NCBI GenBank assembly: GCA_964583985.1
Contig: CAZOYD010000040.1
Coordinates: forward strand, 1-33,459
DNA: 33,459 bases
Origin: an uncultured archaeon
GTDB lineage: Archaea > Asgardarchaeota > Lokiarchaeia > Sigyniarchaeales > SOKP01
Reading direction: 5' to 3'
Position 1 is the first letter of the stretch; every line of letters begins with the position of its first letter. The notes beneath the pieces are model-generated. The model searched no databases and was not told the DNA's origin. It was given only the letters and a program-made list of their open reading frames with translations. The position numbers and the translations under genes were made by a program. Positions 1 to 18,153 of the stretch are shown piece by piece.

Positions 1-54
1 CCCCCGACCTCACGGTTATCAGCCGTGCGCTATACCAGGCTAAGCCACTCTCCC
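1..54 (-). tRNA. tRNA-Ile(GAT), 3' part cut off by window edge
   Basis: Reverse complement GGGAGAG-TG-GCTTAGCCTGGTATAGCG-CACGG-CT-GAT-AA-CCGTG-AGGTC-GGGGG: acceptor 5' strand, D arm, perfect anticodon stem with GAT, variable loop and start of the T stem. Confidence 0.93.
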
Positions 55-479: not shown

Positions 480-637
480 ATGCCCAACTTTCCTAATCTT
501 AACATCATCGAAGAAATTTCTAAAGCTTTTGACAGGATATAATTTAACAGCTGAGGTTTTTGAGAATCTTCTGAAAATCAAAAATTAGGAAAAAAATTGA
601 GATTATTACTCATCACAAAAATTACAATCTTCTTTAA
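480..637 (+). pseudogene. Decayed 5' remnant of a paralogue of the 1181-aa protein (MPNFPNLNIIEEISKAFDRI*, then frameshifted KIEIITHHKNYNLL*)
   Basis: ATG at 480 encodes MPNFP, identical to the first five residues of 1609..5154 (MPNFPDINKI...KIDFIIVEEDSTNL). The upstream intergenic DNA is also homologous. Stop at 540-542. The extension to ~637 is less certain. Confidence 0.7.
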
Positions 638-1378: not shown

Positions 1379-1495
1379 TTAAGGACCACCTTGACCAATT
1401 GCCGGAGCCCAATCTGCCATAACTGCAGAACTTGCTAGCAATATTGATAGTGTTGTAACTATCATAGTCAATAATATGAGAATTTTAACCTTCAT
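1379..1495 (-). CDS. Small secreted peptide precursor, copy 5 (38 aa): MKVKILILLTMIVTTLSILLASSAVMA|DWAPAIGQGGP
   Basis: Hand translation, ATG(1495) to TAA(1379); clear Sec signal peptide with V-M-A; GQGGP end; divergent from the 1181-aa gene. Confidence 0.87.
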   Translation of the reverse strand: MKVKILILLTMIVTTLSILLASSAVMADWAPAIGQGGP

Positions 1496-1608
1496 TTTAC
1501 CTATTCCCTGGTTTATAAGTGTTCAGTATAATTCTAAATAGAGATATTTAAATTCCTATAAATTTGGAATAAAAGATTTATATTCAATTAAACAAAAATA
1601 GTATTGAT
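1496..1608. promoter_or_regulatory. Divergent promoter region between peptide copy 5 and the large regulator-like gene
   Basis: TTTAAATA (minus strand, 1545-1552). The block ATATTTAAATTCCTATAAATTTGGAATAA (1544-1572) resembles ATATTTAAAGTCCTAAAAATTGAAATAA (419-446). Confidence 0.6.
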
Positions 1609-4600
1609 ATGCCCAATTTTCCGGATATAAATAAGATTCACGGATTAATTGAAGATTTAGAAAAAATAAATTTGATTTCAAACGATTTGATTAGCCAATT
1701 TTATCTTTATTTAGGAGTTAAACCTCTGATTGATAAAATTGATTTTATAATTGTTGAGGAGGATAGTACTAATTTAAATTTCATCAATCTCGGCATATCA
1801 GTAGAGAATTATGATGATAATAATAATAGTGTATTGATTAAAATCTATAAAAATTTTACAAAATTTTTACCATTTATAGTTATAAGGGAAGTACTTAGAT
1901 GTTTCATAAATGAGGATTTTAGAAATAATAATTCATTAAATCTCATTATAAATCAAATTACAATTACATTCTTATCAAATCATAATCTTGTAAAAGAATG
2001 GAGATCTGTTATATTAGAAAGTATCCCTCAAAAAAAATTGGAACTTATTAATGAATTTAATAGATTAGAGTACTTGTATAGCAATATAAACCTCATAAAT
2101 GATCCTAATCCCACTCAATTCTTTTTTCAATATCTACATAAACATAAAAATTTGATTAACCAAGATGTTAAATCATTTAGTTTTATCTTTTTTAAAGATT
2201 TCAAAGAAAGTTTTTCAGAATCAACGTTTAATAATGAATTGGTAGAAACATTAAGAATTATAATAATTATTTTTTTAAGAGTTAAGAAACATCACGATTA
2301 TCTTCAATATAAAAATTTTTTTTTAGAGTTTAAGACTAAAAAAATCATTGAAACTGATCTAAGTCTTAGAAAATTCACACAAAATATGGATTGGATAAAA
2401 AATCATAGTTATATAACCCTTTCTTATCAAATTAATTGGCCTGCTCTTAATATCGCTGTTATAATTTTATATATAGAATTTAATCCTTTATTAAATAAAC
2501 TGAAACTACTTAAAATTCTTAAAGATGTTCCCTTTTTTATATCTCCTAAAATTTCAGTTATAAGTAATTCTGTTGATATAAGCGGTTATGTAGTAATTCC
2601 AAAGATTTATTTAGATGATTTTATTAATTTTCTAAATTCTTTAAAAGAAAACAATTACATTAGTAGCTTTAAAGTTTTATTAAGGCTTTCGCAAGACCAT
2701 TGTGTTAATTTGAATTACTTTAAAGAAGAATTTGGGAATAGAGGACTTATCAACTATAAACACTATAAATACCAAAAAAAAAATGAAATTGTAATACATC
2801 TTGAATGGAATGAGAAATATAAAAACCAAGATTTATCCCTGCTTGAATTTTTAATTCTTAACCGAGTTAGGATGTTTCTATTTAGTGGCTTAGGTTTTGA
2901 AAGAAGGGTTGATAATCTTAAAATTATAAAATCTGATATATTTAACGAAATTATAAAACAAAAAACTTTTATTAACAAATTAAAAGAAAATTTAAAAAAT
3001 ATTTACAAATCAGATAGTTTAAAGATTTTTGTCCTCCAAAAATTATATCAGGATCAGGATCTTGGATTCTTTTATGCAAAAAAGAAAATTCATAATTATT
3101 TAGACTTAATAAACAAGCTAGAGCCTCTGATTGAAGAAAATAGAATTGAAAATATCAATGACCTACAAAAATTTTTATCTCGTAATATTATCTCCTCATT
3201 AATTGAGGATAATCTTGTTATAGCTAAAACTAATATCCAAGATTATGTAATTAAAGAATTCTTCAGCGTGTACTTTGATTCAAAAAGAGAATTCTATCAA
3301 AAAGTTGCAAACTACAAAATTTATAATGAATTATTGGAGTTATCTTCTTTTTTGAAGATTTTTAGTCTAAATAATATAATTAAAATTGTTAATGATGAGA
3401 AATTGATTAACATTTTATTTCAGAATAAAGACAAAAAACTAAATGAAATCTATGAACAATATCAAGTTCAAGATTTAAATTCAGAGATGCTTGATAAAAT
3501 CTTAGCTGGTTTTATAGATTCAACGCCTCCTGTATTAACACCTCTTCTTATCAATACTATTATAACTAAAAAATTTGAAAAAGATTATTTTCAGTTAGTA
3601 TTATCAGATTCAGTCGATATACCGAAAAAATTGCAAAATCTTAGAAATTCCTTTCCAAGAACTCTAATAAACTATAATCAAAATTTGATTTCTTCTGAAA
3701 ATCTCTATAGTATAGAAATTTCAATGCCTTCATTAGACATAAAAGAGAAACACTTGTTTATTTCAATTATTTACAATATCTTTAAAAATAGTATAATTTA
3801 TATAAAAAATTATTTATGGAGTGGATTTATACTTGAATTTTTACTTAGAGATTTTTATGATTTTGAAGAAAAAAAGTTTTTTTACACAAAAGACCTATAT
3901 AAAGGATATTTAAAATTTGTATATAATCATTTTAAGAATAAATTAGGGGTGTCAAGAACTAAAAAGTTTAAGAATCAAAAGATTTTATGGACATGTGAAG
4001 ATAATTTTTTCGAGCTTGTAAAAATAGTAGGTAATAGAATAGCAAGAGAAAATAACGTCTATGATTCTTTTATATTGGAACAATTAAAATTCTTATTTTT
4101 AAATATTGAAAGTTTAATATGTATAACAGAAGAGTTTAAAGAAAAAAAGATAGAAATTTTTTTTCAGAATCATATAAAGGCCATTAAATTCATTCCTGTA
4201 TTCAAACGCTTTAATTTAAGTAGATTTATAACTTATTTCTATTCTAGTGATTTAAATCAGATCAATTTTAAATCCTTACTAGGAACTAACTTCTTAAAAA
4301 TAGAATATCCTGCATGCATCGATGATTCCATTCCATTCTTAGTAGACCATATTATTTCCTCCAATCAATTTAATAATTCGATATTAGATAATGTTTTAGC
4401 ACCAGAAAATAAAATTCGCGAGTATTGTGGATTTGTTGTAAAAAAGACTCATATTTTGTTTCATTTTGAAATGAATTTTACTCCGGAGGGTTGGGATTAC
4501 GATAGCGTAATATTTAAAGAGCACCTTGAAAACGTGCTTTTCAATAAAGAGTATCAGTTTAAAATTCCAAATTTAAAATCTTTCCAGTTTTCTGACAATG

Positions 4601-5154
4601 ATGAATTACCTCAATACGATCTTAATTCTCCAGAATTTCAAGATCTTTGCGAGATTTACAACTATCATTCCATCGATATCAAATCCTATATTGGAACTAA
4701 AAAGATTAAAACAGTAGAACGAATCCAAACCTTACTGAAGAAAGGATTAATATTCCCATACATAATCTTAAAGAATTTGGGATTCCAAGAAAGCCTTTAT
4801 CTCATCATCCCTGATCTAAATCAAGATTCCGTGAATACTCTCATTAAAATATTTGGATGGTTTAACTATGGATTTATCCATGAAATTGAAGGGAAGTATT
4901 TCATTTACGGATTTGATGAACCCGTAGAGTTCACTCATGGGTTAATGATGAAAATCTATTTTCCAAAGTGCGAATTGAGTGAATTCAAGCAACTATTTGA
5001 CATAGTGTTTGAATATTTGCAAGTTAAGCATTATCTCATTTTGAAGGATTTTGTAAATGGTGAAACGCTCGTTAAAAACATACATGAGGATCCTGATTTT
5101 TTTAAAACACATCATCCTTTACGAAATATTATAAATGATCATAAAGATGTTTAA
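1609..5154 (+). CDS. Large soluble hypothetical protein (1181 aa); putative transcription regulator with a degenerate zincin-like N-terminus and repeated Lrp/AsnC-like modules
   Basis: Long ORF with no obvious TM segment or signal peptide. FLPFIVIREVLRCF (RExxR where zincins have HExxH). Segments such as VERIQTLLKKGLIFPYIILKNLGFQESLYLIIP and ITLSYQINWPALNIAVIILYIEF resemble the Lrp/AsnC HTH-wing-to-RAM junction. Domain calls are by eye. Confidence 0.6.
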   Translation: MPNFPDINKIHGLIEDLEKINLISNDLISQFYLYLGVKPLIDKIDFIIVEEDSTNLNFINLGISVENYDDNNNSVLIKIYKNFTKFLPFIVIREVLRCFINEDFRNNNSLNLIINQITITFLSNHNLVKEWRSVILESIPQKKLELINEFNRLEYLYSNINLINDPNPTQFFFQYLHKHKNLINQDVKSFSFIFFKDFKESFSESTFNNELVETLRIIIIIFLRVKKHHDYLQYKNFFLEFKTKKIIETDLSLRKFTQNMDWIKNHSYITLSYQINWPALNIAVIILYIEFNPLLNKLKLLKILKDVPFFISPKISVISNSVDISGYVVIPKIYLDDFINFLNSLKENNYISSFKVLLRLSQDHCVNLNYFKEEFGNRGLINYKHYKYQKKNEIVIHLEWNEKYKNQDLSLLEFLILNRVRMFLFSGLGFERRVDNLKIIKSDIFNEIIKQKTFINKLKENLKNIYKSDSLKIFVLQKLYQDQDLGFFYAKKKIHNYLDLINKLEPLIEENRIENINDLQKFLSRNIISSLIEDNLVIAKTNIQDYVIKEFFSVYFDSKREFYQKVANYKIYNELLELSSFLKIFSLNNIIKIVNDEKLINILFQNKDKKLNEIYEQYQVQDLNSEMLDKILAGFIDSTPPVLTPLLINTIITKKFEKDYFQLVLSDSVDIPKKLQNLRNSFPRTLINYNQNLISSENLYSIEISMPSLDIKEKHLFISIIYNIFKNSIIYIKNYLWSGFILEFLLRDFYDFEEKKFFYTKDLYKGYLKFVYNHFKNKLGVSRTKKFKNQKILWTCEDNFFELVKIVGNRIARENNVYDSFILEQLKFLFLNIESLICITEEFKEKKIEIFFQNHIKAIKFIPVFKRFNLSRFITYFYSSDLNQINFKSLLGTNFLKIEYPACIDDSIPFLVDHIISSNQFNNSILDNVLAPENKIREYCGFVVKKTHILFHFEMNFTPEGWDYDSVIFKEHLENVLFNKEYQFKIPNLKSFQFSDNDELPQYDLNSPEFQDLCEIYNYHSIDIKSYIGTKKIKTVERIQTLLKKGLIFPYIILKNLGFQESLYLIIPDLNQDSVNTLIKIFGWFNYGFIHEIEGKYFIYGFDEPVEFTHGLMMKIYFPKCELSEFKQLFDIVFEYLQVKHYLILKDFVNGETLVKNIHEDPDFFKTHHPLRNIINDHKDV

Positions 5155-5500
5155 ATTAGGTTTTGGACAAAAATAATAAGTCAAGAATAAAAATCTCATC
5201 GGATATCATCATTGTAGTGAATTTTTGAAAGTTCTAATTCAAATATTAGTAGAGATCTAAATCTTTTATTTAATCTCTAGCAAATTTCCATCAGTTCCTG
5301 ATTTCCTCATTTCTCCGGGAGAAAATTTTTTGAGGGTGTATCACGGTTTCAACTTTCATATTTAAAGGGTTATTTTTTCTGAAAAAATCAGGTCACGATC
5401 GGTGTTTTTGGGAGCTCAACTCTGTAATTTTAAAACTATCAAAAACTTTATAAATGACACTCTGTCACTTATTAGAATTATGACAATAGAGGTGTTTATT

Positions 5501-5701
5501 TTGGAAGATAAAAATTATCGATGTCCGAGATGTCGGAGTAGGGAGAAAATTATTGATCATGAGAATTCAATATGGTGCATGAGTTGTGATCTGATATTTG
5601 ATAAGGTTGATTTAGAGATGTTTGATGAGGCGGATATTCTAGCGAGATCAGAAAAACAGGGCATAATAGGGGTTTTGCTTGGTGAGTTTCTAAAGGATTA
5701 A
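5501..5701 (+). CDS. Small zinc-ribbon protein (CPRC...CMSC), ~66 aa
   Basis: Two CxxC motifs. GAGGTG SD at 5489-5494 favours the TTG start at 5501 (alternative ATG 5480) over the ORF-track start at 5402. Confidence 0.7.
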   Translation: MEDKNYRCPRCRSREKIIDHENSIWCMSCDLIFDKVDLEMFDEADILARSEKQGIIGVLLGEFLKD

Positions 5702-5702
5702 C

Positions 5703-5733
5703 GTACTCAAGTGAGTACTGCTCTTTATTTTTT
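5703..5733 (+). terminator. Hairpin GTACTC-AAGT-GAGTAC followed by a T-rich tract
   Basis: Inverted repeat directly after the zinc-ribbon stop codon, then TCTTTATTTTTT. Confidence 0.4.
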
Positions 5734-5750
5734 CCCTAATTTTATGATTT

Positions 5751-5794
5751 TTAGAAGATCCTTAGAACATTCTTAGAAAAACCTAAGAAAAAAC
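5751..5794. repeat. Four 11-bp-phased direct repeats with core T[T/A]AGAA
   Basis: TTAGAA at 5751, 5762 and 5773; TAAGAA at 5784. Confidence 0.5.
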
Positions 5795-5925
5795 AGTTGT
5801 ATATATAGTTAGTTTTACTGATCATTTTGCTTTTTCTAGTCAAAAAGTTTAAAATTTGATAATTTAATTGAATGGTAAGAAGTAATTATTATCACAATAT
5901 TTGTATTTTACAAAGGTGTTCATAA

Positions 5926-6933
5926 ATCCCAGAATCAGAGGAATCTAAATCCAATTACGATTTTAACGATTGGAACGTTAAACAACTGAGAGAATTTGCC
6001 AGTAAGAATAACATAAAGGTACCCACGAAATCAAAGAAGGCAGAATTAATAAATATCTTAGAGCCTATAGTCAATCATCCTGAGTTTATTGACAGAACTC
6101 ACGATGTGATTCCTGATGAAGAATTGGAAGAAGAACTGGTTGCTGGTGAGGAATATGACCCTGCATTGTCTCAAAAGGATAAATTAGAATTAAAATTTTG
6201 GCAAAAACCTCCTTATTCAAGTCTTTTAGATCCTGAACTGGCGAAAGACTCTAACGTTGCGTTCTATGATTTATCATCGTTAGTAGATAAGTTTTTCAGT
6301 AACATGTTGTCAGAAGATCTGATTAATTACAAGATTTCTGGGATTGCACTAAAAACTTCGGCTCTTTTGCATCATTATAAAATATCAAGCATAATTAGAG
6401 AGGAAGAGGATATCCAAAAGAAAGAAGAACTCGAATTATTCCGGGAAAGGCACGGAAGATCCATCCCTAAGACATTATCCCAGCCCATTCAACCTAAAAT
6501 GTTGATTTCTACAAAAGAGGAACTATTTGATGCAATGAGATCAGCCATCATCGAGACCATGCAAAATAAAGAGAAATTAAAGAGACGTCGCATTCGCCGT
6601 GAAGAATTAAAACAGAACAAGATAATGGTACGATCAAAGGCTCAATTACCCAAGGAACTCTTGAGACATATAAGTGGGAGGGAACAATCCGTCGAAGAAT
6701 TACATGAATCGTGGTTTAATAGAATAAAAGCAAGAGTAGAATTTGATAATAAGGAAACATCTTTTTATGAGATTGCGAAGATTATTGTTGATGAGGAAAA
6801 AAGTGAGATTGGACGGAAATTTGCATTTGTTAGACTTTTTTTGGCATTAATGTTTCTTTCAACAGGAAATAAATTATACTTATCCCAAGATGAAGATTTT
6901 AAAGATTTTGCCATAGATCTCAAGAAAAGATAA
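5926..6933 (+). CDS. scpA: Segregation and condensation protein A (kleisin) with an N-terminal HeH/Rho-N-like module; probable ATC start
   Basis: C-terminal FVRLFLALMFLSTGNKLYLSQDEDFKDFAI kleisin winged helix; N-terminal kleisin helices (YDLSSLVDKF...INYKISGIAL); adjacent to scpB. The frame is open from ATC 5926 (after AAGGTG); the ORF track starts at 6106. Confidence 0.8.
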   Translation: MPESEESKSNYDFNDWNVKQLREFASKNNIKVPTKSKKAELINILEPIVNHPEFIDRTHDVIPDEELEEELVAGEEYDPALSQKDKLELKFWQKPPYSSLLDPELAKDSNVAFYDLSSLVDKFFSNMLSEDLINYKISGIALKTSALLHHYKISSIIREEEDIQKKEELELFRERHGRSIPKTLSQPIQPKMLISTKEELFDAMRSAIIETMQNKEKLKRRRIRREELKQNKIMVRSKAQLPKELLRHISGREQSVEELHESWFNRIKARVEFDNKETSFYEIAKIIVDEEKSEIGRKFAFVRLFLALMFLSTGNKLYLSQDEDFKDFAIDLKKR

Positions 6934-6950
6934 ATAAAAAACCCAGGTAA

Positions 6951-7724
6951 ATGCTCATGAATAATTCTGAAGAAGAAAACCTGAAAGATATGGAAGAACA
7001 GGATGAAGGTGATGAAGAGATTGACGAAAAAGAACTTCAAGAAAGCGATGAAGACAGCGACGATATGAAAGAAGATGAACCTTTAGAAAATAACGAAAGT
7101 TTACCCATTGTTGAAGAATCTCAACCAATTATTCTTGAAAACGAAAAAGAAACTACTATAGTTGAAAAAGAAAAAAAGTTGGAAATTAGGGACATACAAA
7201 AGAATTTAATTGAGGGGGCCCTCTATGCCGCTGGTCGACCATTGGATATTGAAGAATTAGCAACAAAATTAGAAACCCCTAAGAAATTGACGGAAGAGCT
7301 AGTCAATGAATTAGCCATGGAGTATTTAGAGCGTACTACCTCTTTAGTTATTGCACAAGTAGGAGAAAGATACCAAATGCAACTTAGACCTGAATATACC
7401 GAAAGCGTTGCGAAATTCGCAAAGGGAGGAGCGATAGCTGAACGATATCTACGAACTTTGACCGTTATCGCATTAAAACAGCCCATCTTGAAATCTACAA
7501 TAGTAAAATTACGGGGAAGCGGAGCTTATGAACATATAAAGTATTTAATCGATAATGACTTGATTGAGGCTGTAAAAAAGGGTAGATCATTTGAGTTAAC
7601 GACGTCGGATAAATACTCCGAAATGTTTGGTTTACCAAAAAACAAAACAGAATTAAAAAAGGCAATGATCCAACAATTAGGGATGGAACCATTAAATTTC
7701 GGTCCCGAAGAGCCTTATGATTAA
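6951..7724 (+). CDS. scpB: Segregation and condensation protein B with an acidic N-terminal extension
   Basis: IEGALYAAGRPL, LRTLTVIALKQPI...LRG and LTTSDKYSEMFGL motifs. Confidence 0.92.
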   Translation: MLMNNSEEENLKDMEEQDEGDEEIDEKELQESDEDSDDMKEDEPLENNESLPIVEESQPIILENEKETTIVEKEKKLEIRDIQKNLIEGALYAAGRPLDIEELATKLETPKKLTEELVNELAMEYLERTTSLVIAQVGERYQMQLRPEYTESVAKFAKGGAIAERYLRTLTVIALKQPILKSTIVKLRGSGAYEHIKYLIDNDLIEAVKKGRSFELTTSDKYSEMFGLPKNKTELKKAMIQQLGMEPLNFGPEEPYD

Positions 7725-11293: not shown

Positions 11294-13672
11294 TTAATAT
11301 TGCGTTCGTGCTATGATATCATCTTGAGCTGTTTTTGATATTTCATTAAATAAAACAGAATACCCCGCAATCCTCACGACTAAACCACGATAATGATTAG
11401 GATTTTTTTGGGCATCGCAGAGAATGTCTTTACCAACAACGTTAAATTGAACGTGATATCCCCCCTCTTTTTTAAAATAAGTTCTAATCAATGGCAAAAA
11501 AGTATTAGGACTTACAGAATTTGGATGAAAAGATAATATCACGGAATTTCCATTCGTCATTAGTCCATTGTCCAATTTCATCACGGAATTTAATATAGCT
11601 GTTGGTCCATTTTTGTCCCTACCATTTGTTGGACCAACTCCATTGGATAAAATATCCCTAGATTTTCTACCATCTGCTGACGCTGCAGTAAATACACCAA
11701 AAGCAATATGAAATGATGTAGTGTAAAAACCTGGATTGTAAATTCCTCCTCTGAAATTCTTATGTTTAACCAGTTCTTTACAAAAAACACGTGCCACGTC
11801 TCTTACAATCGAATCAACATAATCGTCATCATTACCAAATTTGGGTACTTTATTGATAAATATCTCTCGCCACATTTCACCTTTCTTTTCTCGATACGTT
11901 CCCCGATAATTCTTTACAAGTATTTTCACTAGATCTTCATACAAAAGAAGCTTATCCTCGAATACTAACTTTTTTATAACCGCAAGACTATCTCCCACTG
12001 TAGCCAATCCAATTAATTGAGTAGTTGTAAAATCGTACAAAGCACCCCCTCTTGTAATATCTAATCCACGCTCTATGCAGTCATCTATTGTTGCTGATAA
12101 AAAGGGTTGTGGATTTAATTCTGCAATGGCTCTATCAAGGTAATTCATTGTTTCAACTAAGGGTTTTATGAAATGTTTTAGCTGTAATACAAACTCGTTC
12201 CATAAGTCTTCATACGAAGATATTGGTTTGGAATTTTCGATACCATATTTTTTTCTTGTAAACATATCTATTCCATTGTTCAAGGTGAGTTCAAGACATT
12301 TAACAGCATTTAATTCTGTTGCATTTGTACATCCATATGTTTTAAAAGGATGTGAGGGTTCCACACAACCAATAGGGGCATACTCTCTGGCATCTTCAAG
12401 AGAATATCCAAGATCAATTAAACCTGGAATCATGACTTCATCATTAAAAAGAGCAATGCTAGCACCATCTTTTATGGCTTCCCCAGTTTTCAATATCAAT
12501 TCATCGGGTGTATTTTGACTCACTCGTACAGAAAAAGTAGGTTGTACCGTTTTTAATTTATGGTATGCTTCTAAAAAGATGTAAGATAACTCATTGGTCA
12601 CATCATGCCCATCCGCATTAATTCCTCCTATAGTCAAATTCGACGCAATAGGAGGTCCTTCGGCAGCTATAATACCTTTATGCAAAACATAATTCCATAA
12701 GGTAATTAACTTAAGATAAAAACATTCAATGATAAATTTAGCCTCTTCTTGTTTCATGATCCCCTTATTAATGTCATTGATATAATAGGGATACAAAACT
12801 TGATCCAATCGCCCTAAACTTATAGCAAATCCTCCATCTTCTAATCCTGTTATAATATGAGTAAATAACACCAGTTGAATTGCTTCTTTAAAGTTTTTTG
12901 GAGGCTCATTTGAAATATTATAACAAATTTCAGAGATCTCAAGGAGTTCTGCTTTTCTATTTATATCTGATTCCTCTAAAGCCATTTTTTTAGCTAAATC
13001 TGAAAATCTCAGAATATAATGCTTAACTCCGTCTAAAATAATTAAGATTGAATTTAGAAATGTCAATTTATCTTGATCATCCTTGAAATCTTCTATTTTT
13101 TGTTTTGTTTTTGAAAGTAAACCAACAAGACCTCCCTTCAATACATTTTGATGTCCTGGAAAGAAATGACCTACTCCATTCGTAATATGAGTATCAACGA
13201 TATATAGCAGATTAAGCATTAGTTCATTTAACTCGGGACTTAAAAATGAATTAAATCGTGATTTTACGGTCTCTTCCTCATTTTTCCAATATGGGATAAT
13301 CTGTTCTCTCATAAATTTTTTGTTTTCCTCTGAAAACACAAAACTCTGTACATCCCGAGTATCATAGAGTTCAAGATCTAATTCAATCGTGTCTATTCTT
13401 ACTTCAGGATATAATGGAGTTCCAACCAACTTAGTTGTTCTAGTACCAACGAGAAATTCGTCATCCCATATTTTAATTGACATATTCTTCAAGAAATAAG
13501 TCATTGCTTTTGCAAATCTCAAGGGTGGTGATTCTCCTTTTGCTTTTTGATAGGATTCAGTCATTAATTTCGCTCTTTCCACGCAGATTTCATGTGGTTG
13601 ATTGATAAGTTTAAGTCTCATTCGTTCAATTCGCTCTTCATAATCTGAAAAACGATTTAGCTCTAATTGCAT
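11294..13672 (-). CDS. Glycyl-radical enzyme (PFL2/dehydratase-like family)
   Basis: C-terminal LVVRIAGYS glycyl-radical motif; single-Cys IGCVEP loop; ISLGRLDQ, PKFGND and SADGR motifs. Confidence 0.9.
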   Translation of the reverse strand: MQLELNRFSDYEERIERMRLKLINQPHEICVERAKLMTESYQKAKGESPPLRFAKAMTYFLKNMSIKIWDDEFLVGTRTTKLVGTPLYPEVRIDTIELDLELYDTRDVQSFVFSEENKKFMREQIIPYWKNEEETVKSRFNSFLSPELNELMLNLLYIVDTHITNGVGHFFPGHQNVLKGGLVGLLSKTKQKIEDFKDDQDKLTFLNSILIILDGVKHYILRFSDLAKKMALEESDINRKAELLEISEICYNISNEPPKNFKEAIQLVLFTHIITGLEDGGFAISLGRLDQVLYPYYINDINKGIMKQEEAKFIIECFYLKLITLWNYVLHKGIIAAEGPPIASNLTIGGINADGHDVTNELSYIFLEAYHKLKTVQPTFSVRVSQNTPDELILKTGEAIKDGASIALFNDEVMIPGLIDLGYSLEDAREYAPIGCVEPSHPFKTYGCTNATELNAVKCLELTLNNGIDMFTRKKYGIENSKPISSYEDLWNEFVLQLKHFIKPLVETMNYLDRAIAELNPQPFLSATIDDCIERGLDITRGGALYDFTTTQLIGLATVGDSLAVIKKLVFEDKLLLYEDLVKILVKNYRGTYREKKGEMWREIFINKVPKFGNDDDYVDSIVRDVARVFCKELVKHKNFRGGIYNPGFYTTSFHIAFGVFTAASADGRKSRDILSNGVGPTNGRDKNGPTAILNSVMKLDNGLMTNGNSVILSFHPNSVSPNTFLPLIRTYFKKEGGYHVQFNVVGKDILCDAQKNPNHYRGLVVRIAGYSVLFNEISKTAQDDIIARTQY

Positions 13673-13768
13673 TTTAAATCACGGAATTGGTTTTAATTTA
13701 GTTTGAATAATCAACTAACAAAATTATAGTAGTAATACTTATAAAAATATTGAGTATAAAATCAAAAT

Positions 13769-14590
13769 TCAATCAGAACGTGCAGAAAATAACATTGATA
13801 TGGTTTTCTTATCTTTAAACCTTTTAATCGCTAAATCAAGATACTCTTTATTATTATCAATTCCGATAAATCTTCTTCCGAGAACGTTGCAGACTATTCC
13901 TGTCGATCCAGATCCAACAAAAGGATCAAGTACTAAATCATTTTCATTAGATGATGCTGATATAATTCGATTTAAAAGTTCCAAGGGTTTCTGAGTAGGG
14001 TGTTTTCCATATTCTTTTTCGGATTTTGGCAACAAGGGAATTGACCAAACGCTTCTCATCTGCTTATCGATATTTTTTAATTTATCTTTAGGATTATTCC
14101 ACCTTTTCATTAATTCATAATTGAACGCATGTTTTGAGTTACAGCTTTTTCTTGCCCATAAAACGATTTCGTGACTATGCGTGAAATATTTACATGATAA
14201 ATTTGGAGGAGCATTAGGTTTATACCAAACAATGTCATTTATGATGTCATAACCATTTTTCTCCAGTAAATATCCAATTTTATATATAATGTGTAATGTT
14301 CCAGATATCCAAATACTTCCATTCTTTTTTAAAATTCTTTTACATGCTTTTAACCAGTCATCAGTAAATCGTACATCTTCCTCAAAGCCTTGAGATTTAT
14401 CCCAATTTGCCTTATTCACTGAGACCATTTTTCCTGAAACACAAGTCACTCCATCATTAGATAAGAAATAAGGAGGATCAGCAAAAATAAGATCGAAATA
14501 ATCATTATTAAATTGATTTAAGATATCAAGTACATCTCCATGGAACAGTGCAAAATCTTTTGATTTAAAATAAGGGCTTATCTGCAACAT
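13769..14590 (-). CDS. Beta-class adenine DNA methyltransferase, DpnIIB/MboIB-like (probably GATC)
   Basis: IFADPPYFLSNDGVTCVSGKMVSVNK, HPTQKP and LDPFVGSGST, in beta-class motif order. Confidence 0.88.
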   Translation of the reverse strand: MLQISPYFKSKDFALFHGDVLDILNQFNNDYFDLIFADPPYFLSNDGVTCVSGKMVSVNKANWDKSQGFEEDVRFTDDWLKACKRILKKNGSIWISGTLHIIYKIGYLLEKNGYDIINDIVWYKPNAPPNLSCKYFTHSHEIVLWARKSCNSKHAFNYELMKRWNNPKDKLKNIDKQMRSVWSIPLLPKSEKEYGKHPTQKPLELLNRIISASSNENDLVLDPFVGSGSTGIVCNVLGRRFIGIDNNKEYLDLAIKRFKDKKTISMLFSARSD

Positions 14591-14696
14591 CCTTTCTTAA
14601 TAAGATATAGTACCTTTATTTTATTAAGTTTAAAGTTTTAAATTATCAAATTTTTATTATTTCATAGATACATAAATTCTGCATGAAGTTTGAAAA

Positions 14697-15638
14697 ATGT
14701 CAAGTAAAGAGAGATTTGAAGAATTATTCAATAAACATCTGATTAAAGATATAACTGAAGAAAATATTGACATTGTCCTTACAGGTCAATATGGGAAAGC
14801 TTTAGAGTTATTGCGAGATGCTGAATCAACAGGATTATTTCCTGCTTTGGTGGGGCCTCCTGGTGTGGGGAAAACGATCTTATGTAGATATTTCGCAAGT
14901 CTGAGAGCAAGAGAAAATAAGAATAAATCATTTTATTGGCTGACGATGGATGAATCCATTAAACCATCCCATTTTATAGGAAGCTTTGATCCCGCTATTA
15001 CACTCAAGAAAGGGTTTACCTTGGAAGCATTTAATTCTGGACCATTATTAAGTGCCATGTTAGAAGGTGGTACCTTTTTGGCGAATGAAATTAATAGAGC
15101 AACGGAATATTCTCAAAATACGCTTTTGGAACCATTAGAAGAAGCATCTATTGGTATTCCTCATTTAGGAAGAATTAAAGCCGATGAAAATTTCTTCTTC
15201 ATCTCTGCAATGAATCCCGAAGAACTTTCGGGAACACATAGGCTTTCAGAAGCGCTGAAAGATAGGATTAAAGTATGGATCAAATTGACCTATCCTGAAA
15301 AAGCCACTGAATTAGAGATAATTAGAATAAATCTACCGGAGCATTTTACCGTAGAAGAAACTGAGTTAGAATTAATCTATTCAATTATAAATGAAACTCG
15401 AAGAAATAAAATCGACATTGAAATTCCTGCTTCCATTAGAGCCGGTATTGCTATGGCAAAACTATTAGCTAGAAAACGAGTTTTAGAAAAAAGTGGGGAA
15501 CTTAAAGATAAAAAAAGCGTTTATGAACATCTTTCTGATATTTCAAGAAATGTGCTTTTAGGGAGCATTAAACCGAAACCTGGTGTTAAAGCTGAGAGCA
15601 TAATTGAAAATATCATACATAAAACCTTAGGAGCATAG
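14697..15638 (+). CDS. MoxR-family AAA+ ATPase
   Basis: GPPGVGKT Walker A, FLANEINR variant Walker B, AMNP, LSEALKDR; upstream of a VWA gene. Confidence 0.88.
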   Translation: MSSKERFEELFNKHLIKDITEENIDIVLTGQYGKALELLRDAESTGLFPALVGPPGVGKTILCRYFASLRARENKNKSFYWLTMDESIKPSHFIGSFDPAITLKKGFTLEAFNSGPLLSAMLEGGTFLANEINRATEYSQNTLLEPLEEASIGIPHLGRIKADENFFFISAMNPEELSGTHRLSEALKDRIKVWIKLTYPEKATELEIIRINLPEHFTVEETELELIYSIINETRRNKIDIEIPASIRAGIAMAKLLARKRVLEKSGELKDKKSVYEHLSDISRNVLLGSIKPKPGVKAESIIENIIHKTLGA

Positions 15639-15651
15639 GAGGTAATTTTTA

Positions 15652-18153
15652 ATGGGGGTCTTCCCTGAAAATCCTTGTGAATATGCAGTTGATTTCATTA
15701 GAAAAATGAGAAAACATCCCGACATTGTACAAATACCATCTTCACGTCAAGTTCTCTCTATTCCAAAATTAATTTTATCGCGATACTATCGAAATGGAAT
15801 TATTACACCTAATGATTATATTGAAATCAGTGTGGTTACCTCATTTCCAGATAATCAAGAATTAGCTAAGGACTTAGCTTTTGAAATTCTATTTCCTAAC
15901 TATAAAAAGGACATGATGGATTCTTTTTTTGATAGTGATTCAGAATCCCTTGAAAAGAATAACCAAGATCAATTGGAACAAGAGATTCAGTCAGAGTTAG
16001 ATCAAATTCAAGAGATGATTGAGGAGATTGAACTATCCAGTTCAATAGATTCAGATGCTATTCAAGAATTAGAAGACTTCATGAATGAATTAAATCAAAA
16101 AAGGGAAGAAGAACCATATAAATCAGCACTCCACTTTCTTAACGATGATTCTGAGATTTATAAAGAAGAAATATCTTCATTAAAAAAACTCATTGAAGAA
16201 GCACAGAAACGACTAAATCAAAAGATTAATTCATTAGATCCAGAAGATATAAAAGCAGCTGTAAATTTAGGGCTAGAAGATCTAATTCAACAAAAGTCTT
16301 TGCGAGAATGGGAAAAAATTACAAGTAAAGCCTTAAAAGGTGAAGATGTTAACGATGAATTGAATAAATTGCTTAGCTCAGGAAAATTGGATGACCTCTT
16401 ACAAACAATGAAATTTATGGATAGCGCGTCAAAAGAAGATAACATAAAAAATCAGTTAGAAAACATGAAAAATCAACTCCAAACTCAAATTGAAAATTTG
16501 GATCAACTATTTAATGCTGCTAAAACATTAGGAAATCCTCCTCAAGTTAATTTGAATGATATACTTAATAATTCATTGCAAAATGCCTCTTTTGAACATA
16601 ATTTTAATTTAGCAAATTCTTTAGATCAGTATTTTGGGACTGATATTAGATCAAAACTATTAAATAAATTTCAAGAACAACAAGGTAATTTACCCACTAG
16701 TCTTTCGCTGGAAACTTTAGCAAAAAATCCATTTACAAATAAAGCATGGAATTCACTTCTTAATCAAGCTTTAAAAAATGAGATAGACAATGCATTAAAT
16801 CAAAATATTAAGTTTGAAGCGTTGAAATCATTAACACATCAAGTTCAACAACTGATGAATAGTTGTGCAAATCCACATTGTAGTCAAAAATTTAACCAAA
16901 CTATTCCAGATCTCGTAAAAAAAACATTAGAATCGTGTGAAAATGCAGATCAATTAAGAAATTCTACTGAATTCTTAAGAAAGCTTGGATTAAATCCAAA
17001 TCCAGATGATATTAGAAAAATTGGTCAAAAGCTAAACATGCTTGAAGAAGAAATCAATGAACTCATTGAACCAAATTATCAACTGTTAAAAAAAATGATC
17101 GAGAAAAATAAAGCAGATTTTCAAAGAATTTCAAACTTAATGGACCAAATTCAAGATCAATTAAATCCTGATAGACTTAAAGAATTAATGAGCAGTGCTA
17201 TGGCAAGCGATAATCAAGATGCTCTTGGGGCTCTTGGTCATTTCAATTTAAACGAAGCAGTAAAAGCCGCTAATCAAGTGGGGGGAAAAGAAGGCCAAGA
17301 TAAAATGATCTCCTGTTTATCGGCTGGGAGTGGAGAAAATCTACTTAAACAATGGTTTATTCATAGAGATAAGTTGCCTAGTGCTCCTAAAGCGAAAATT
17401 AAGGATTTAGCTAAAAAAATGTTAATTGATTTAGGTATTTATTATTCAAGAGCTCGTTTAGGGAGTGCTAATACTGGTCCAATACCAATTAATATCGTTA
17501 GACCATATACAATTGGCGATGATTTTGAAAATATTGATTTAGAAGAGACAATGTATAATTTATTAGAAAAAGGGAAAGAATTGGACCATATTCAATACGA
17601 AGATTTTTACGTTTCAGAAACGGCAAAAGGAATAAGATCTGCTTGCTTTGAATTAGATATTAGTGGTTCGATGTCAGGAGATAAATTAGCTTACATGACA
17701 ATATGTGCAACAATGCTTATTTATGGATTAAGGAAGGATGAATTAGCTATATCTTTTTTTGAATCAGATACTCATGTCTTAAAAGAAATGAATAAAAAGG
17801 TGGATCTAGAGAAACTTGCAGATGATTTGTTAACAATATCTGCGAGAGGTGGAACTAGAATACAAAGTGCTCTTGAATGGGCTAGAAAGCAGTTTAAAGA
17901 AAACTCAAGTTCGCGCGAAAAGTTGAATGTATTATTTACAGACGCAGAAATTTATGATATTCAACAAGCAATGGAAGAGTTGAGGTTATTTCGCTCTCTT
18001 GGAATAGATTTCATTTTAATTTGCCCTGAAACTTCTTTTGATTTGAAAGAAGCAGAAAGAATGGTAAAGGTAGCAGGAGGGCAATTATTAACTGTAAAGG
18101 ATTGGAATGATTTTCCTAAATTAATTTCTGATATTATAAAATCGAGATTTTGA
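15652..18153 (+). CDS. VWA-domain protein (MoxR partner) with a long helical middle region
   Basis: C-terminal MIDAS residues: LDISGSM, GGT, LFTD; GGAGGT SD. Confidence 0.88.
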   Translation: MGVFPENPCEYAVDFIRKMRKHPDIVQIPSSRQVLSIPKLILSRYYRNGIITPNDYIEISVVTSFPDNQELAKDLAFEILFPNYKKDMMDSFFDSDSESLEKNNQDQLEQEIQSELDQIQEMIEEIELSSSIDSDAIQELEDFMNELNQKREEEPYKSALHFLNDDSEIYKEEISSLKKLIEEAQKRLNQKINSLDPEDIKAAVNLGLEDLIQQKSLREWEKITSKALKGEDVNDELNKLLSSGKLDDLLQTMKFMDSASKEDNIKNQLENMKNQLQTQIENLDQLFNAAKTLGNPPQVNLNDILNNSLQNASFEHNFNLANSLDQYFGTDIRSKLLNKFQEQQGNLPTSLSLETLAKNPFTNKAWNSLLNQALKNEIDNALNQNIKFEALKSLTHQVQQLMNSCANPHCSQKFNQTIPDLVKKTLESCENADQLRNSTEFLRKLGLNPNPDDIRKIGQKLNMLEEEINELIEPNYQLLKKMIEKNKADFQRISNLMDQIQDQLNPDRLKELMSSAMASDNQDALGALGHFNLNEAVKAANQVGGKEGQDKMISCLSAGSGENLLKQWFIHRDKLPSAPKAKIKDLAKKMLIDLGIYYSRARLGSANTGPIPINIVRPYTIGDDFENIDLEETMYNLLEKGKELDHIQYEDFYVSETAKGIRSACFELDISGSMSGDKLAYMTICATMLIYGLRKDELAISFFESDTHVLKEMNKKVDLEKLADDLLTISARGGTRIQSALEWARKQFKENSSSREKLNVLFTDAEIYDIQQAMEELRLFRSLGIDFILICPETSFDLKEAERMVKVAGGQLLTVKDWNDFPKLISDIIKSRF

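Follow-up and report, generated by a model that had tools for sequence, protein, structure and literature searches.

The window analyzed here is a 33,459-nt stretch of DNA from an uncultured archaeon, comprising contig C40 of a 3.8-Mb metagenome-assembled genome (G000; 31.7% G+C); the closest matches of its proteins are all from Promethearchaeota/Lokiarchaeia. Near one end lies an array of very small peptide genes, the innermost of which stands head-to-head with the gene of an 1181-residue cytoplasmic protein (hereafter, the large gene and the large protein). Asgard archaea are the closest prokaryotic relatives of eukaryotes, and their signaling and regulation are, to our knowledge, almost unexplored; we also know of no peptide-based cell-cell signaling established in Archaea. 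A sequence-only reading of this locus had proposed a quorum-sensing-like pair, in which an exported peptide would act on an intracellular sensor encoded from a shared divergent promoter. The evidence assembled here points, tentatively, to an accessory cassette in which a regulator of the Lrp/AsnC kind would control genes for exported micropeptides.

The peptide array and its divergent cassette

Five copies of the peptide gene, all on the minus strand, lie between positions 251 and 1495. Copy 1 (251-370) encodes 39 residues, beginning MNIQKRF and ending SLA/SWYPADGQGGP, where the slash marks the predicted cleavage site; an alternative in-frame ATG is present at 391. Copies 2 (681-806; 41 residues), 3 (951-1067; 38 residues), and 5 (1379-1495; 38 residues, beginning MKVKILILL) end in GLA/ENFPGGHGGP, AYG/WWPGGQGGP, and AVMA/DWAPAIGQGGP, respectively. 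Copy 4 (~1164-1267) is a frameshifted pseudogene of the copy 2 type; in a DNA alignment with copy 2, it displays a 2-nt deletion, a mutated GGP-stop, and loss of the stop codon. The outer border of the array is formed by a partial tRNA-Ile(GAU) gene (1-54, minus strand) that is cut off by the contig end.

Expression signals accompany the intact copies. The TATA box TTTAAATA is found 45-50 nt upstream of all four intact peptide starts (at 420-427 for copy 1 and 1545-1552 for copy 5, each 50 nt upstream; at 852-859 for copy 2; and at 1112-1119 for copy 3) and nowhere else in the first 1.7 kb. Ribosome-binding sites of the GGAGG/GGTGG type precede the peptide start codons (GGAGG at copies 1 and 2), and A-runs, which read as oligo-T on the coding strand, follow the stop codons. 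A scan for sigma-70 promoters and terminators, irrelevant for an archaeon, gave a result below the shuffled expectation and was set aside. Stop-to-stop frames of at least 15 residues ending in GGP number only eight in the whole 3.8-Mb genome, and four of them belong to the array. A hidden Markov model (HMM) of the peptides, built from the first matches and iterated to convergence, gave six good matches in the same genome: the four in the window, one beside a paralogue of the large gene on contig C102, and one near a contig end.

Orthologues of the peptide genes were recognized among 57 related loci from GTDB representative genomes, of which about 50 have usable flanks (loci are cited by number, as in L003, where they must be told apart). 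Copy 1 has an orthologue in L004, and copy 2 is represented by three copies in L003. Orthologues of both copy 3 and copy 5 occur in L044, the former upstream of and divergent from the large gene, the latter downstream of it. A tRNA-Ile gene also borders the array in L003 and L044, and the 54 nt present in the window are identical (54/54) to the ARAGORN-called tRNA-Ile of L003. Ratios of nonsynonymous to synonymous substitution (dN/dS; Nei-Gojobori) for the peptide orthologues range from 0.38 to 0.65, the lowest value being that of copy 2. Between copy 1 and its counterpart in L004, the ten-residue tail WYPADGQGGP is identical and synonymous sites are saturated (22.8 differences at 25.2 sites). 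On the basis of the TATA boxes and Shine-Dalgarno sites, the orthologues, and dN/dS values below 1, these small open reading frames are real genes.

Their products share one layout (alignment A2): a basic n-region leads into a hydrophobic core of ~20 residues, positions -3 and -1 carry small residues, and the tail that follows is 8-13 residues long. The tails are rich in aromatic residues, Pro, and Gly, are uncharged or acidic, and usually end in G-x-G-G-P. Small residues at -3 and -1 are retained in every peptide subfamily, and the (-3,-1) rule is the cleavage pattern of signal peptidase I; because the sequences fit this rule, the peptides are predicted to be exported by the Sec pathway and cleaved to 8-13-mers. 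Searches of Pfam and NCBIfam with the peptides returned no family match. Conservation over the entire length, across genera, characterizes the subfamily ending in KKVLVALAILLTVSYGLSMAAAGVSIPGCGEAAP. As a separate observation, the subfamily ending in AGVSIPGCGE[AG][AS]P (L031, L034, L074-L077, and L081-L089) shows full-length conservation in several genera, and most of its members have no linkage to the large gene; the I-P-G-C that it contains resembles a lipobox, and either a lipidated hexapeptide or a small protein of the membrane might result.

The head-to-head arrangement of copy 5 and the large gene (1609-5154, plus strand) is as the sequence-only reading described it. The copy 5 ATG at 1495 faces the large-gene ATG at 1609; the two start codons are 114 nt apart, and the spacer between them (1496-1608) measures 113 nt. 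As judged from its sequence, this divergent intergenic region probably carries two back-to-back promoters. The transcription factor B recognition element (BRE) and TATA box assigned to the peptide gene lie at 1545-1558 on the minus strand, and a TTTATATT box assigned to the large gene lies on the plus strand at 1577-1584. Since this box is only 25 nt before the ATG, a leaderless mRNA is suggested for the large gene. A TATTTAAA-CCTA block is kept in the cassettes of L003 and L004, as well as in a fossil cassette within the window itself.

That fossil bears out a further claim, that the arrangement recurs at copy 1, although there it survives as a decayed cassette. Facing copy 1 is a stub of 20 codons from the 5' end of a large-gene copy (480-542, plus strand; MPNFPNLNIIEE..., translated MPNFPNLN...), whose ATG lies 110 nt from the copy 1 start at 370. 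The stub has ATGCCCAAYTTTCC and the TATA/BRE promoter block in common with the intact cassette (1545-1622). It is also closer to the start of the L004 large gene, MPNFPKLNFIQE, than to the window's own, MPNFPDINKIHG, and this likeness suggests duplication or exchange of whole cassettes, each comprising the peptide gene, the promoters, and the 5' end of the large gene. The resemblance of the MPNFP N-terminus to the ENFPGG peptide tail was dismissed as coincidence because MPNFP is not conserved among homologues.

Fold of the large protein

Within one Lokiarchaeia family, the gene of the large protein (N-terminus MPNFPD) is near-core. Full-length homologues, of ~1,200 residues, number more than 100, all from Promethearchaeota and all annotated as hypothetical. 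A whole-protein AlphaFold2 (AF2) model, based on an alignment of 43 sequences, reached a predicted local distance difference test score (pLDDT) of 86 and a predicted template modeling score (pTM) of 0.84. Its fold was compared with 48,161 PDB representatives using VIA-align, with further searches by Foldseek and in the ESM Atlas.

Residues 12-204 (1642-2220, plus strand) probably form a zincin-like domain of the thermolysin/M1 type according to VIA-align. They match thermolysin (5a3y; Z 7.9 over 173 residues), M1 aminopeptidases (Z 7-8.2 over 165-175 residues), and TAF2 (Z 5.5-6.1); many zincins are listed, although this range of Z is common for unrelated models. HExxH is absent from 43/43 homologues, and the metal ligands are missing. 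The helix that follows the zincin sheet carries the motif L-R-E-x-[YL]-x-C-F, the Glu of which is kept in 38/43 homologues, and its topology suggests that it is the counterpart of the active-site helix. The possible pseudo-peptidase domain of the sequence-only reading thus finds a likely equivalent in the model.

The rest of the chain resembles two fused pairs of Lrp/AsnC-like modules, each module comprising a winged helix-turn-helix (wHTH) and a regulation of amino acid metabolism (RAM) domain. For the first pair, assigned by VIA-align and the ESM Atlas to residues 205-773 (2221-3927, plus strand), the best match is NirDL (4czc_A; Z 13.5 over 301 aligned residues, from residues 209-773), and residues 204-372 also match the AsnC/Lrp chains 2cg4, 2p5v, and 3i4p (Z 5.3-5.6). 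A net-basic charge (median +4) and a well-conserved motif, LSLRKF..N..W, mark the first wHTH. A helical insert of about 230 residues (411-640) lies within this pair; an ESM Atlas feature search with residues 405-645 gave no usable match. The second pair (residues 820-1181; 4066-5151, plus strand) was identified by VIA-align from a separate AF2 model of residues 775-1181 (pLDDT 84), which again matches NirDL (4czc_A; Z 11.2 over 266 residues). The archaeal Lrp/AsnC chains 2ia0, 2dbb, 8q90, and 2e7w match residues ~1000-1175 (Z 5.2-6.5), and the ACT domain 1zpv is matched as well (Z 6.5). Conservation within the family is highest in the last RAM/ACT module. In the ESM Atlas, the nearest clusters are of archaeal proteins with HTH_AsnC-type/HTH_24 domains. 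Foldseek against the PDB recovered NirDL alone, at E ~3e-3; rows for AcrB (TM 0.07) were rejected as noise from ferredoxin-like subdomains.

In the models, the architecture is thus a dead zincin-like domain and, after it, two NirDL-like pseudo-dimers that together contain four wHTH + RAM modules; it is the same in homologues with and without a peptide gene. A soluble, multi-domain protein without a visible tetratricopeptide repeat (TPR) or RRNPP fold had been proposed from the sequence, and both points hold: no TPR family was matched in Pfam at E <= 1, and no TPR chain appears among the VIA-align or Foldseek matches, by which the helical insert (411-640) is barely covered. A reading as a structural maintenance of chromosomes (SMC) protein, to which the length of about 1180 residues and a position upstream of ScpA/ScpB might point, was rejected; there is no P-loop and no SMC match in Pfam, and the fold is different. 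Some homologues of the large gene (G057:C245, G009:C28, and G116:C32) contain internal stops, up to three TAG and four TAA, and are therefore probably pseudogenes, indicating that extra copies of the large gene decay.

Linkage and distribution of the two families

In all, 22 peptide genes were found at 14 of the ~50 related loci with usable flanks (28%). Most are divergent from and upstream of the large gene; co-directional peptide genes downstream of it occur in L031, in L034, as one of the two in L044, and at the C102 paralogue. In a FastTree phylogeny of the large proteins, peptide-bearing loci fall into five clusters, and none of 500 label shuffles was equally clustered. Large-gene identity among these five peptide-linked clades is 27-56%. 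The gene on the far side of the peptide genes varies by clade (an adenylate-kinase-like gene with tRNA-Ile, ribosomal L15e, a tRNA synthetase, a CxxCxxCC protein, or a transposase); therefore, the peptide genes travel with the large gene and not with another neighbor.

Distribution was assessed in a class sample of 150 genomes and a phylum sample of 300. In the class sample, the large gene is present in 111 of 125 genomes of one GTDB family (f1) and in none of 24 from other families, and the peptide HMM has matches in 33 genomes. Outside the genome of the window, there are 37 peptide matches at E <= 1e-5; comparison of coordinates by hand placed 22 of them no more than 750 nt from a large gene. 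Because only ~2-4 kb of a 4-Mb genome adjoins a large gene, chance adjacency amounts to ~0.1% per gene, as against the 59% observed. The phylum sample confines both families to f1, with peptides in 12/67 f1 genomes versus 0/232 others and the large gene in 83/90 versus 0/209. The linkage of peptide gene to large gene is thus real, old, and repeated, and its repetition, together with confinement to the same lineage, argues for a functional tie. This tie is not obligatory.

Nor is it specific to one type of peptide. The peptide type nearest to the large gene differs among close relatives, being type 5 in the window, type 2 in L003, type 1 in L004, and type 3 in L044, and the single large gene of the window faces four different peptides. 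The one-to-one pairing of peptide and receptor implied by the sequence-only reading was accordingly not borne out. Even in the absence of a peptide gene, the spacers upstream of the large gene are long, at 300-2600 nt. In the peptide-less clades, an all-against-all BLAST of the flanking frames revealed no other conserved small open reading frame, only alternative frames of neighboring genes.

The sole paralogue of the large gene in the genome of the window (contig C102; 27% identical) has a peptide gene ~240 nt downstream and co-directional with it. A third gene of the HAHWFPPGGGMP (HWFPPGGGMP) type lies at G000:C1:197180-197311 on the minus strand (8181-8312 of L060), 283 nt from the end of contig C1. 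A join of C1 to C102, which starts with the paralogue, was considered and rejected: the two do not overlap, and the start of C102 overlaps C51 instead. A 405-residue protein with two S26/S24 signal-peptidase-like halves is encoded 1.5 kb from the paralogue's peptide gene (L061, on G000:C102; 5639-6856, minus strand), and its neighborhood recurs in G080:C47 and G081:C218, with the protein 76-77% identical, but not in G141.

Candidate roles and related systems

Taken together, the data are best described as an accessory, lineage-restricted cassette of an Lrp-type regulator and exported micropeptides, a reading to which we assign a probability of about 45% and which is offered with corresponding reserve. 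Each peptide gene, with its own BRE/TATA promoter, Shine-Dalgarno site, and oligo-T terminator, would give rise to a Sec-type pre-peptide, and the cut by signal peptidase would release a peptide of 8-13 residues ending in G-x-G-G-P. The large protein would most likely be a ligand-responsive DNA-binding regulator of the Lrp/AsnC kind, and in cassette-bearing lineages it would control the peptide-gene promoters and its own, which stand back to back. Its binding to DNA and its regulatory role are inferred from fold and gene order; Lrp/AsnC regulators are classically encoded divergently from their targets. The large protein may, in addition, sense the common G-x-GGP end. A regulator with accessory target genes fits better than a strict one-peptide-one-receptor system because the tie is non-obligatory, peptide types are shuffled, four peptides accompany one large gene, and the hydrophobic core is as conserved as the tail.

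Several observations weigh against this reading. NirDL, the best structural match, is an enzyme, and the fold is therefore no guarantee of DNA binding. In sequence searches, hmmscan of the large protein at E <= 1 found no Pfam or NCBIfam match, including HTH_AsnC-type/HTH_24 and AsnC_trans_reg, and a profile of the 43 homologues found nothing among PDB sequences at E <= 10. A near-consensus promoter stands at each peptide gene, so that no activator would be needed. The stretch separating the two TATA boxes revealed no conserved operator, and its ATTCC-N9-GGAAT inverted repeat is not kept in L003 or L004. Two large-gene clades, amounting to 24 loci, have no peptide at all; 15 of the 37 peptide genes are solitary amid housekeeping genes; and in g1, the genus of the window, the large gene is present in 35 of 38 genomes but a peptide is detectable in only 6 of 38. 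A peptide neighbor accompanies only ~13% of large-gene matches in the class sample. Because most homologues are without a neighboring peptide gene, the core function of the large protein cannot depend on the peptides. These counts also bear on the expectation, put forward with the original proposal, that homologues would each have an adjacent peptide gene: linkage beyond chance in five clades stood, whereas general co-occurrence did not, with ~36 of 50 loci and ~145 of 166 matches lacking one, which is largely the outcome that had been named in advance as refuting the proposal.

Gene layout invites comparison with the RRNPPA systems (Rgg-SHP, ComR-ComS, PlcR-PapR, NprR-NprX, Rap-Phr, and AimR-AimP). 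In Rgg/SHP and the RRNPPA systems of Bacillales, the peptide gene is divergent upstream or just downstream of the receptor gene; not every receptor has a propeptide gene beside it, and duplicates of peptide genes occur (PMC9765709). The cassette is similar in having a very small gene divergent from, or just downstream of, that of a cytoplasmic protein, in the predicted active part being the C-terminal 8-13 residues behind a hydrophobic, Sec-type N-terminus, and in the occurrence of duplicated peptide genes, of receptor-gene candidates without a peptide neighbor, and of oligopeptide-binding proteins in the genome, where four SBP_bac_5 (Opp/Dpp-type binding protein) matches lie elsewhere. The peptide pocket of RRNPPA receptors, however, is formed by 5-9 TPR or TPR-like repeats (PMC9765709), whereas the candidate receptor here consists of a zincin-like domain and four Lrp/AsnC modules with no TPR match. 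Moreover, RRNPPA systems belong to Bacillota and their phages or mobile elements, whereas the cassette is archaeal, with all homologues in one Promethearchaeota/Lokiarchaeia family; one large gene faces a four-peptide array, and most homologues have no peptide. Lying outside the taxonomic range, and with no TPR fold detected in searches by which the helical insert is barely covered, the cassette is not a member of RRNPPA. Full-text literature searches for peptide signaling in Asgard archaea or other archaea gave nothing relevant.

Three further families bear comparison at the level of fold. With Lrp/AsnC (feast/famine) regulators, the large protein shares the wHTH + RAM (beta-alpha-beta-beta-alpha-beta) organization, in fold only (Z 5-6.5), and a gene divergent from its candidate target, as in asnC-asnA, where the regulator gene is divergent from its target. 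It differs from them in having four modules in one 1181-residue chain, a zincin-like domain, a 230-residue helical insert, and no Pfam match to HTH_AsnC-type/AsnC_trans_reg. Both halves resemble the fused Lrp/AsnC-like pair of the siroheme decarboxylase NirDL/AhbAB (PDB 4czc and 4ch7; Z 13.5 over 301 residues and Z 11.2 over 266 residues), although sequence identity is 9-10% and no haem-d1 or haem biosynthesis genes are found in the context; the match shows the arrangement of the modules, not an enzymatic function. The comparison with catalytically dead M1/thermolysin-type zincins, such as TAF2 of TFIID, concerns the N-terminal 200 residues, which superpose on TAF2 and on the catalytic domains of thermolysin and M1 aminopeptidases (Z 5.5-8.2) and lack HExxH, but Z is only middling and there is no sequence similarity.

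Alternative accounts differ mainly in what they make of the linkage. If the cleaved peptides accumulated outside the cell, were re-imported by an Opp/Dpp-type ATP-binding cassette transporter, and altered DNA binding of the large protein by occupying its dead zincin groove or a RAM interface, the locus would be a full quorum-sensing-like circuit, in logic akin to Rgg-SHP, PlcR-PapR, or arbitrium but with a receptor of unrelated fold. Linkage in five clades, the 22 of 37 peptide genes near a large gene, and the restriction of both families to f1 agree with such a circuit, as do the layout it has in common with the Rgg/SHP and Bacillales RRNPPA systems (PMC9765709) and the four SBP_bac_5 genes. 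The predicted mature peptides are suitably short, uncharged or acidic, and aromatic- and Pro-rich; a zincin fold without metal ligands could retain a peptide groove; and the tail type (GQGGP, GGGP, PGCGEAAP, or HWFPPGGGMP) is particular to each large-protein clade. We nonetheless consider the circuit unlikely, as a peptide goes undetected in the majority of genomes that carry the large gene, four peptides of shuffled nearest type are unlike one-to-one cognate pairing, and a core about as conserved between orthologues as the tail would be unusual for a signal sequence that is simply discarded. Co-folding of residues 1-960 with a 36-residue pre-peptide (alignments A1 and A2) gave a score of 0.29 beside a mark of 0.32 and speaks neither for nor against binding. 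A shade less likely again is the bolder claim of a first archaeal peptide-pheromone circuit, in which re-imported G-x-GGP 8-13-mers would be read by a non-TPR receptor-regulator of zincin and Lrp/AsnC parts that tunes transcription. The opposite extreme, neutral co-location, would have small, mobile, duplicating peptide units persisting in a long, AT-rich, promoter-rich, permissive, and highly expressed spacer near a tRNA and passed on together with the large gene, with products that do not interact. The solitary 15 of 37 peptide genes, the duplication and decay of the cassette (the stub at 480-542 and the copy 4 pseudogene), and the 300-2600-nt spacers that persist in the absence of a peptide gene are in its favor. 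It appears improbable in view of linkage in five clades of 27-56% identity, in two orientations and beside differing far-side genes, and of the 59% adjacency against a chance value of ~0.1%.

Two other accounts concern the products themselves, and little credence is given to either. Arrays of small hydrophobic paralogues in tandem are a usual mark of small membrane proteins and toxins, and the array is of this form; with a hydrophobic segment about as conserved as the tail and the KKVLVALAILLTVSYGLSMAAAGVSIPGCGEAAP subfamily conserved throughout, the peptides could remain uncleaved as single-pass micro-proteins of the membrane, resembling type-I toxins or serving as small membrane subunits, with the large protein at most their regulator. 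Small residues at -3 and -1 followed by a polar Gly/Pro tail, seen in all subfamilies, are instead the signal-peptidase pattern; no antisense RNA or antitoxin partner is evident, and Pfam and NCBIfam gave no match, which makes this account quite improbable. Equally improbable is the proposal that the large protein, instead of regulating, handles peptides in the cytoplasm as a chaperone, a scaffold for maturation, or an enzyme, and would grip the pre-peptides before export through winged helices or the zincin-like groove. Winged-helix recognition elements that bind precursors of ribosomally synthesized and post-translationally modified peptides (RiPPs) are known and provide a precedent, the closest solved structure, NirDL, is an enzyme built of Lrp/AsnC modules, and the Glu of the zincin-like helix is kept in 38 of 43 homologues. 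Yet the metal ligands are missing in all 43, no modifying enzymes are encoded nearby, the pre-peptides look like ordinary Sec substrates and not leader-core RiPP precursors, and most large genes have no peptide neighbor.

Two undescribed gene families, both found in one Lokiarchaeia family only, thus emerge from this locus: a near-core protein of ~1,200 residues with a new architecture, and unannotated, putatively exported micropeptides. Conserved genes of this kind, with products of 38 residues, escape gene callers. Coupling beyond chance provides a testable pair, consisting of 10-mers, one protein, and a 113-bp promoter region. If the preferred reading of a regulator with accessory peptide targets is true, a giant Lrp-type regulator of micropeptides would represent a new type of archaeal regulator.

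The remaining genes of the window are of lesser concern. Downstream of the large gene, positions 5402-7724 hold a 99-residue, CxxC zinc-ribbon-like open reading frame, a 275-residue open reading frame, and ScpB (PF04079, E 4e-33); the 275-residue frame, at the position of ScpA, has no Pfam match, and this neighborhood is kept only among close relatives. Genes with ordinary annotations, unrelated to the cassette, occur at 11294-18153 and encode a pyruvate-formate-lyase-like glycyl-radical enzyme (792 residues), a DNA methylase (N6_N4_Mtase), and a MoxR-type AAA ATPase followed by an 833-residue VWA protein.

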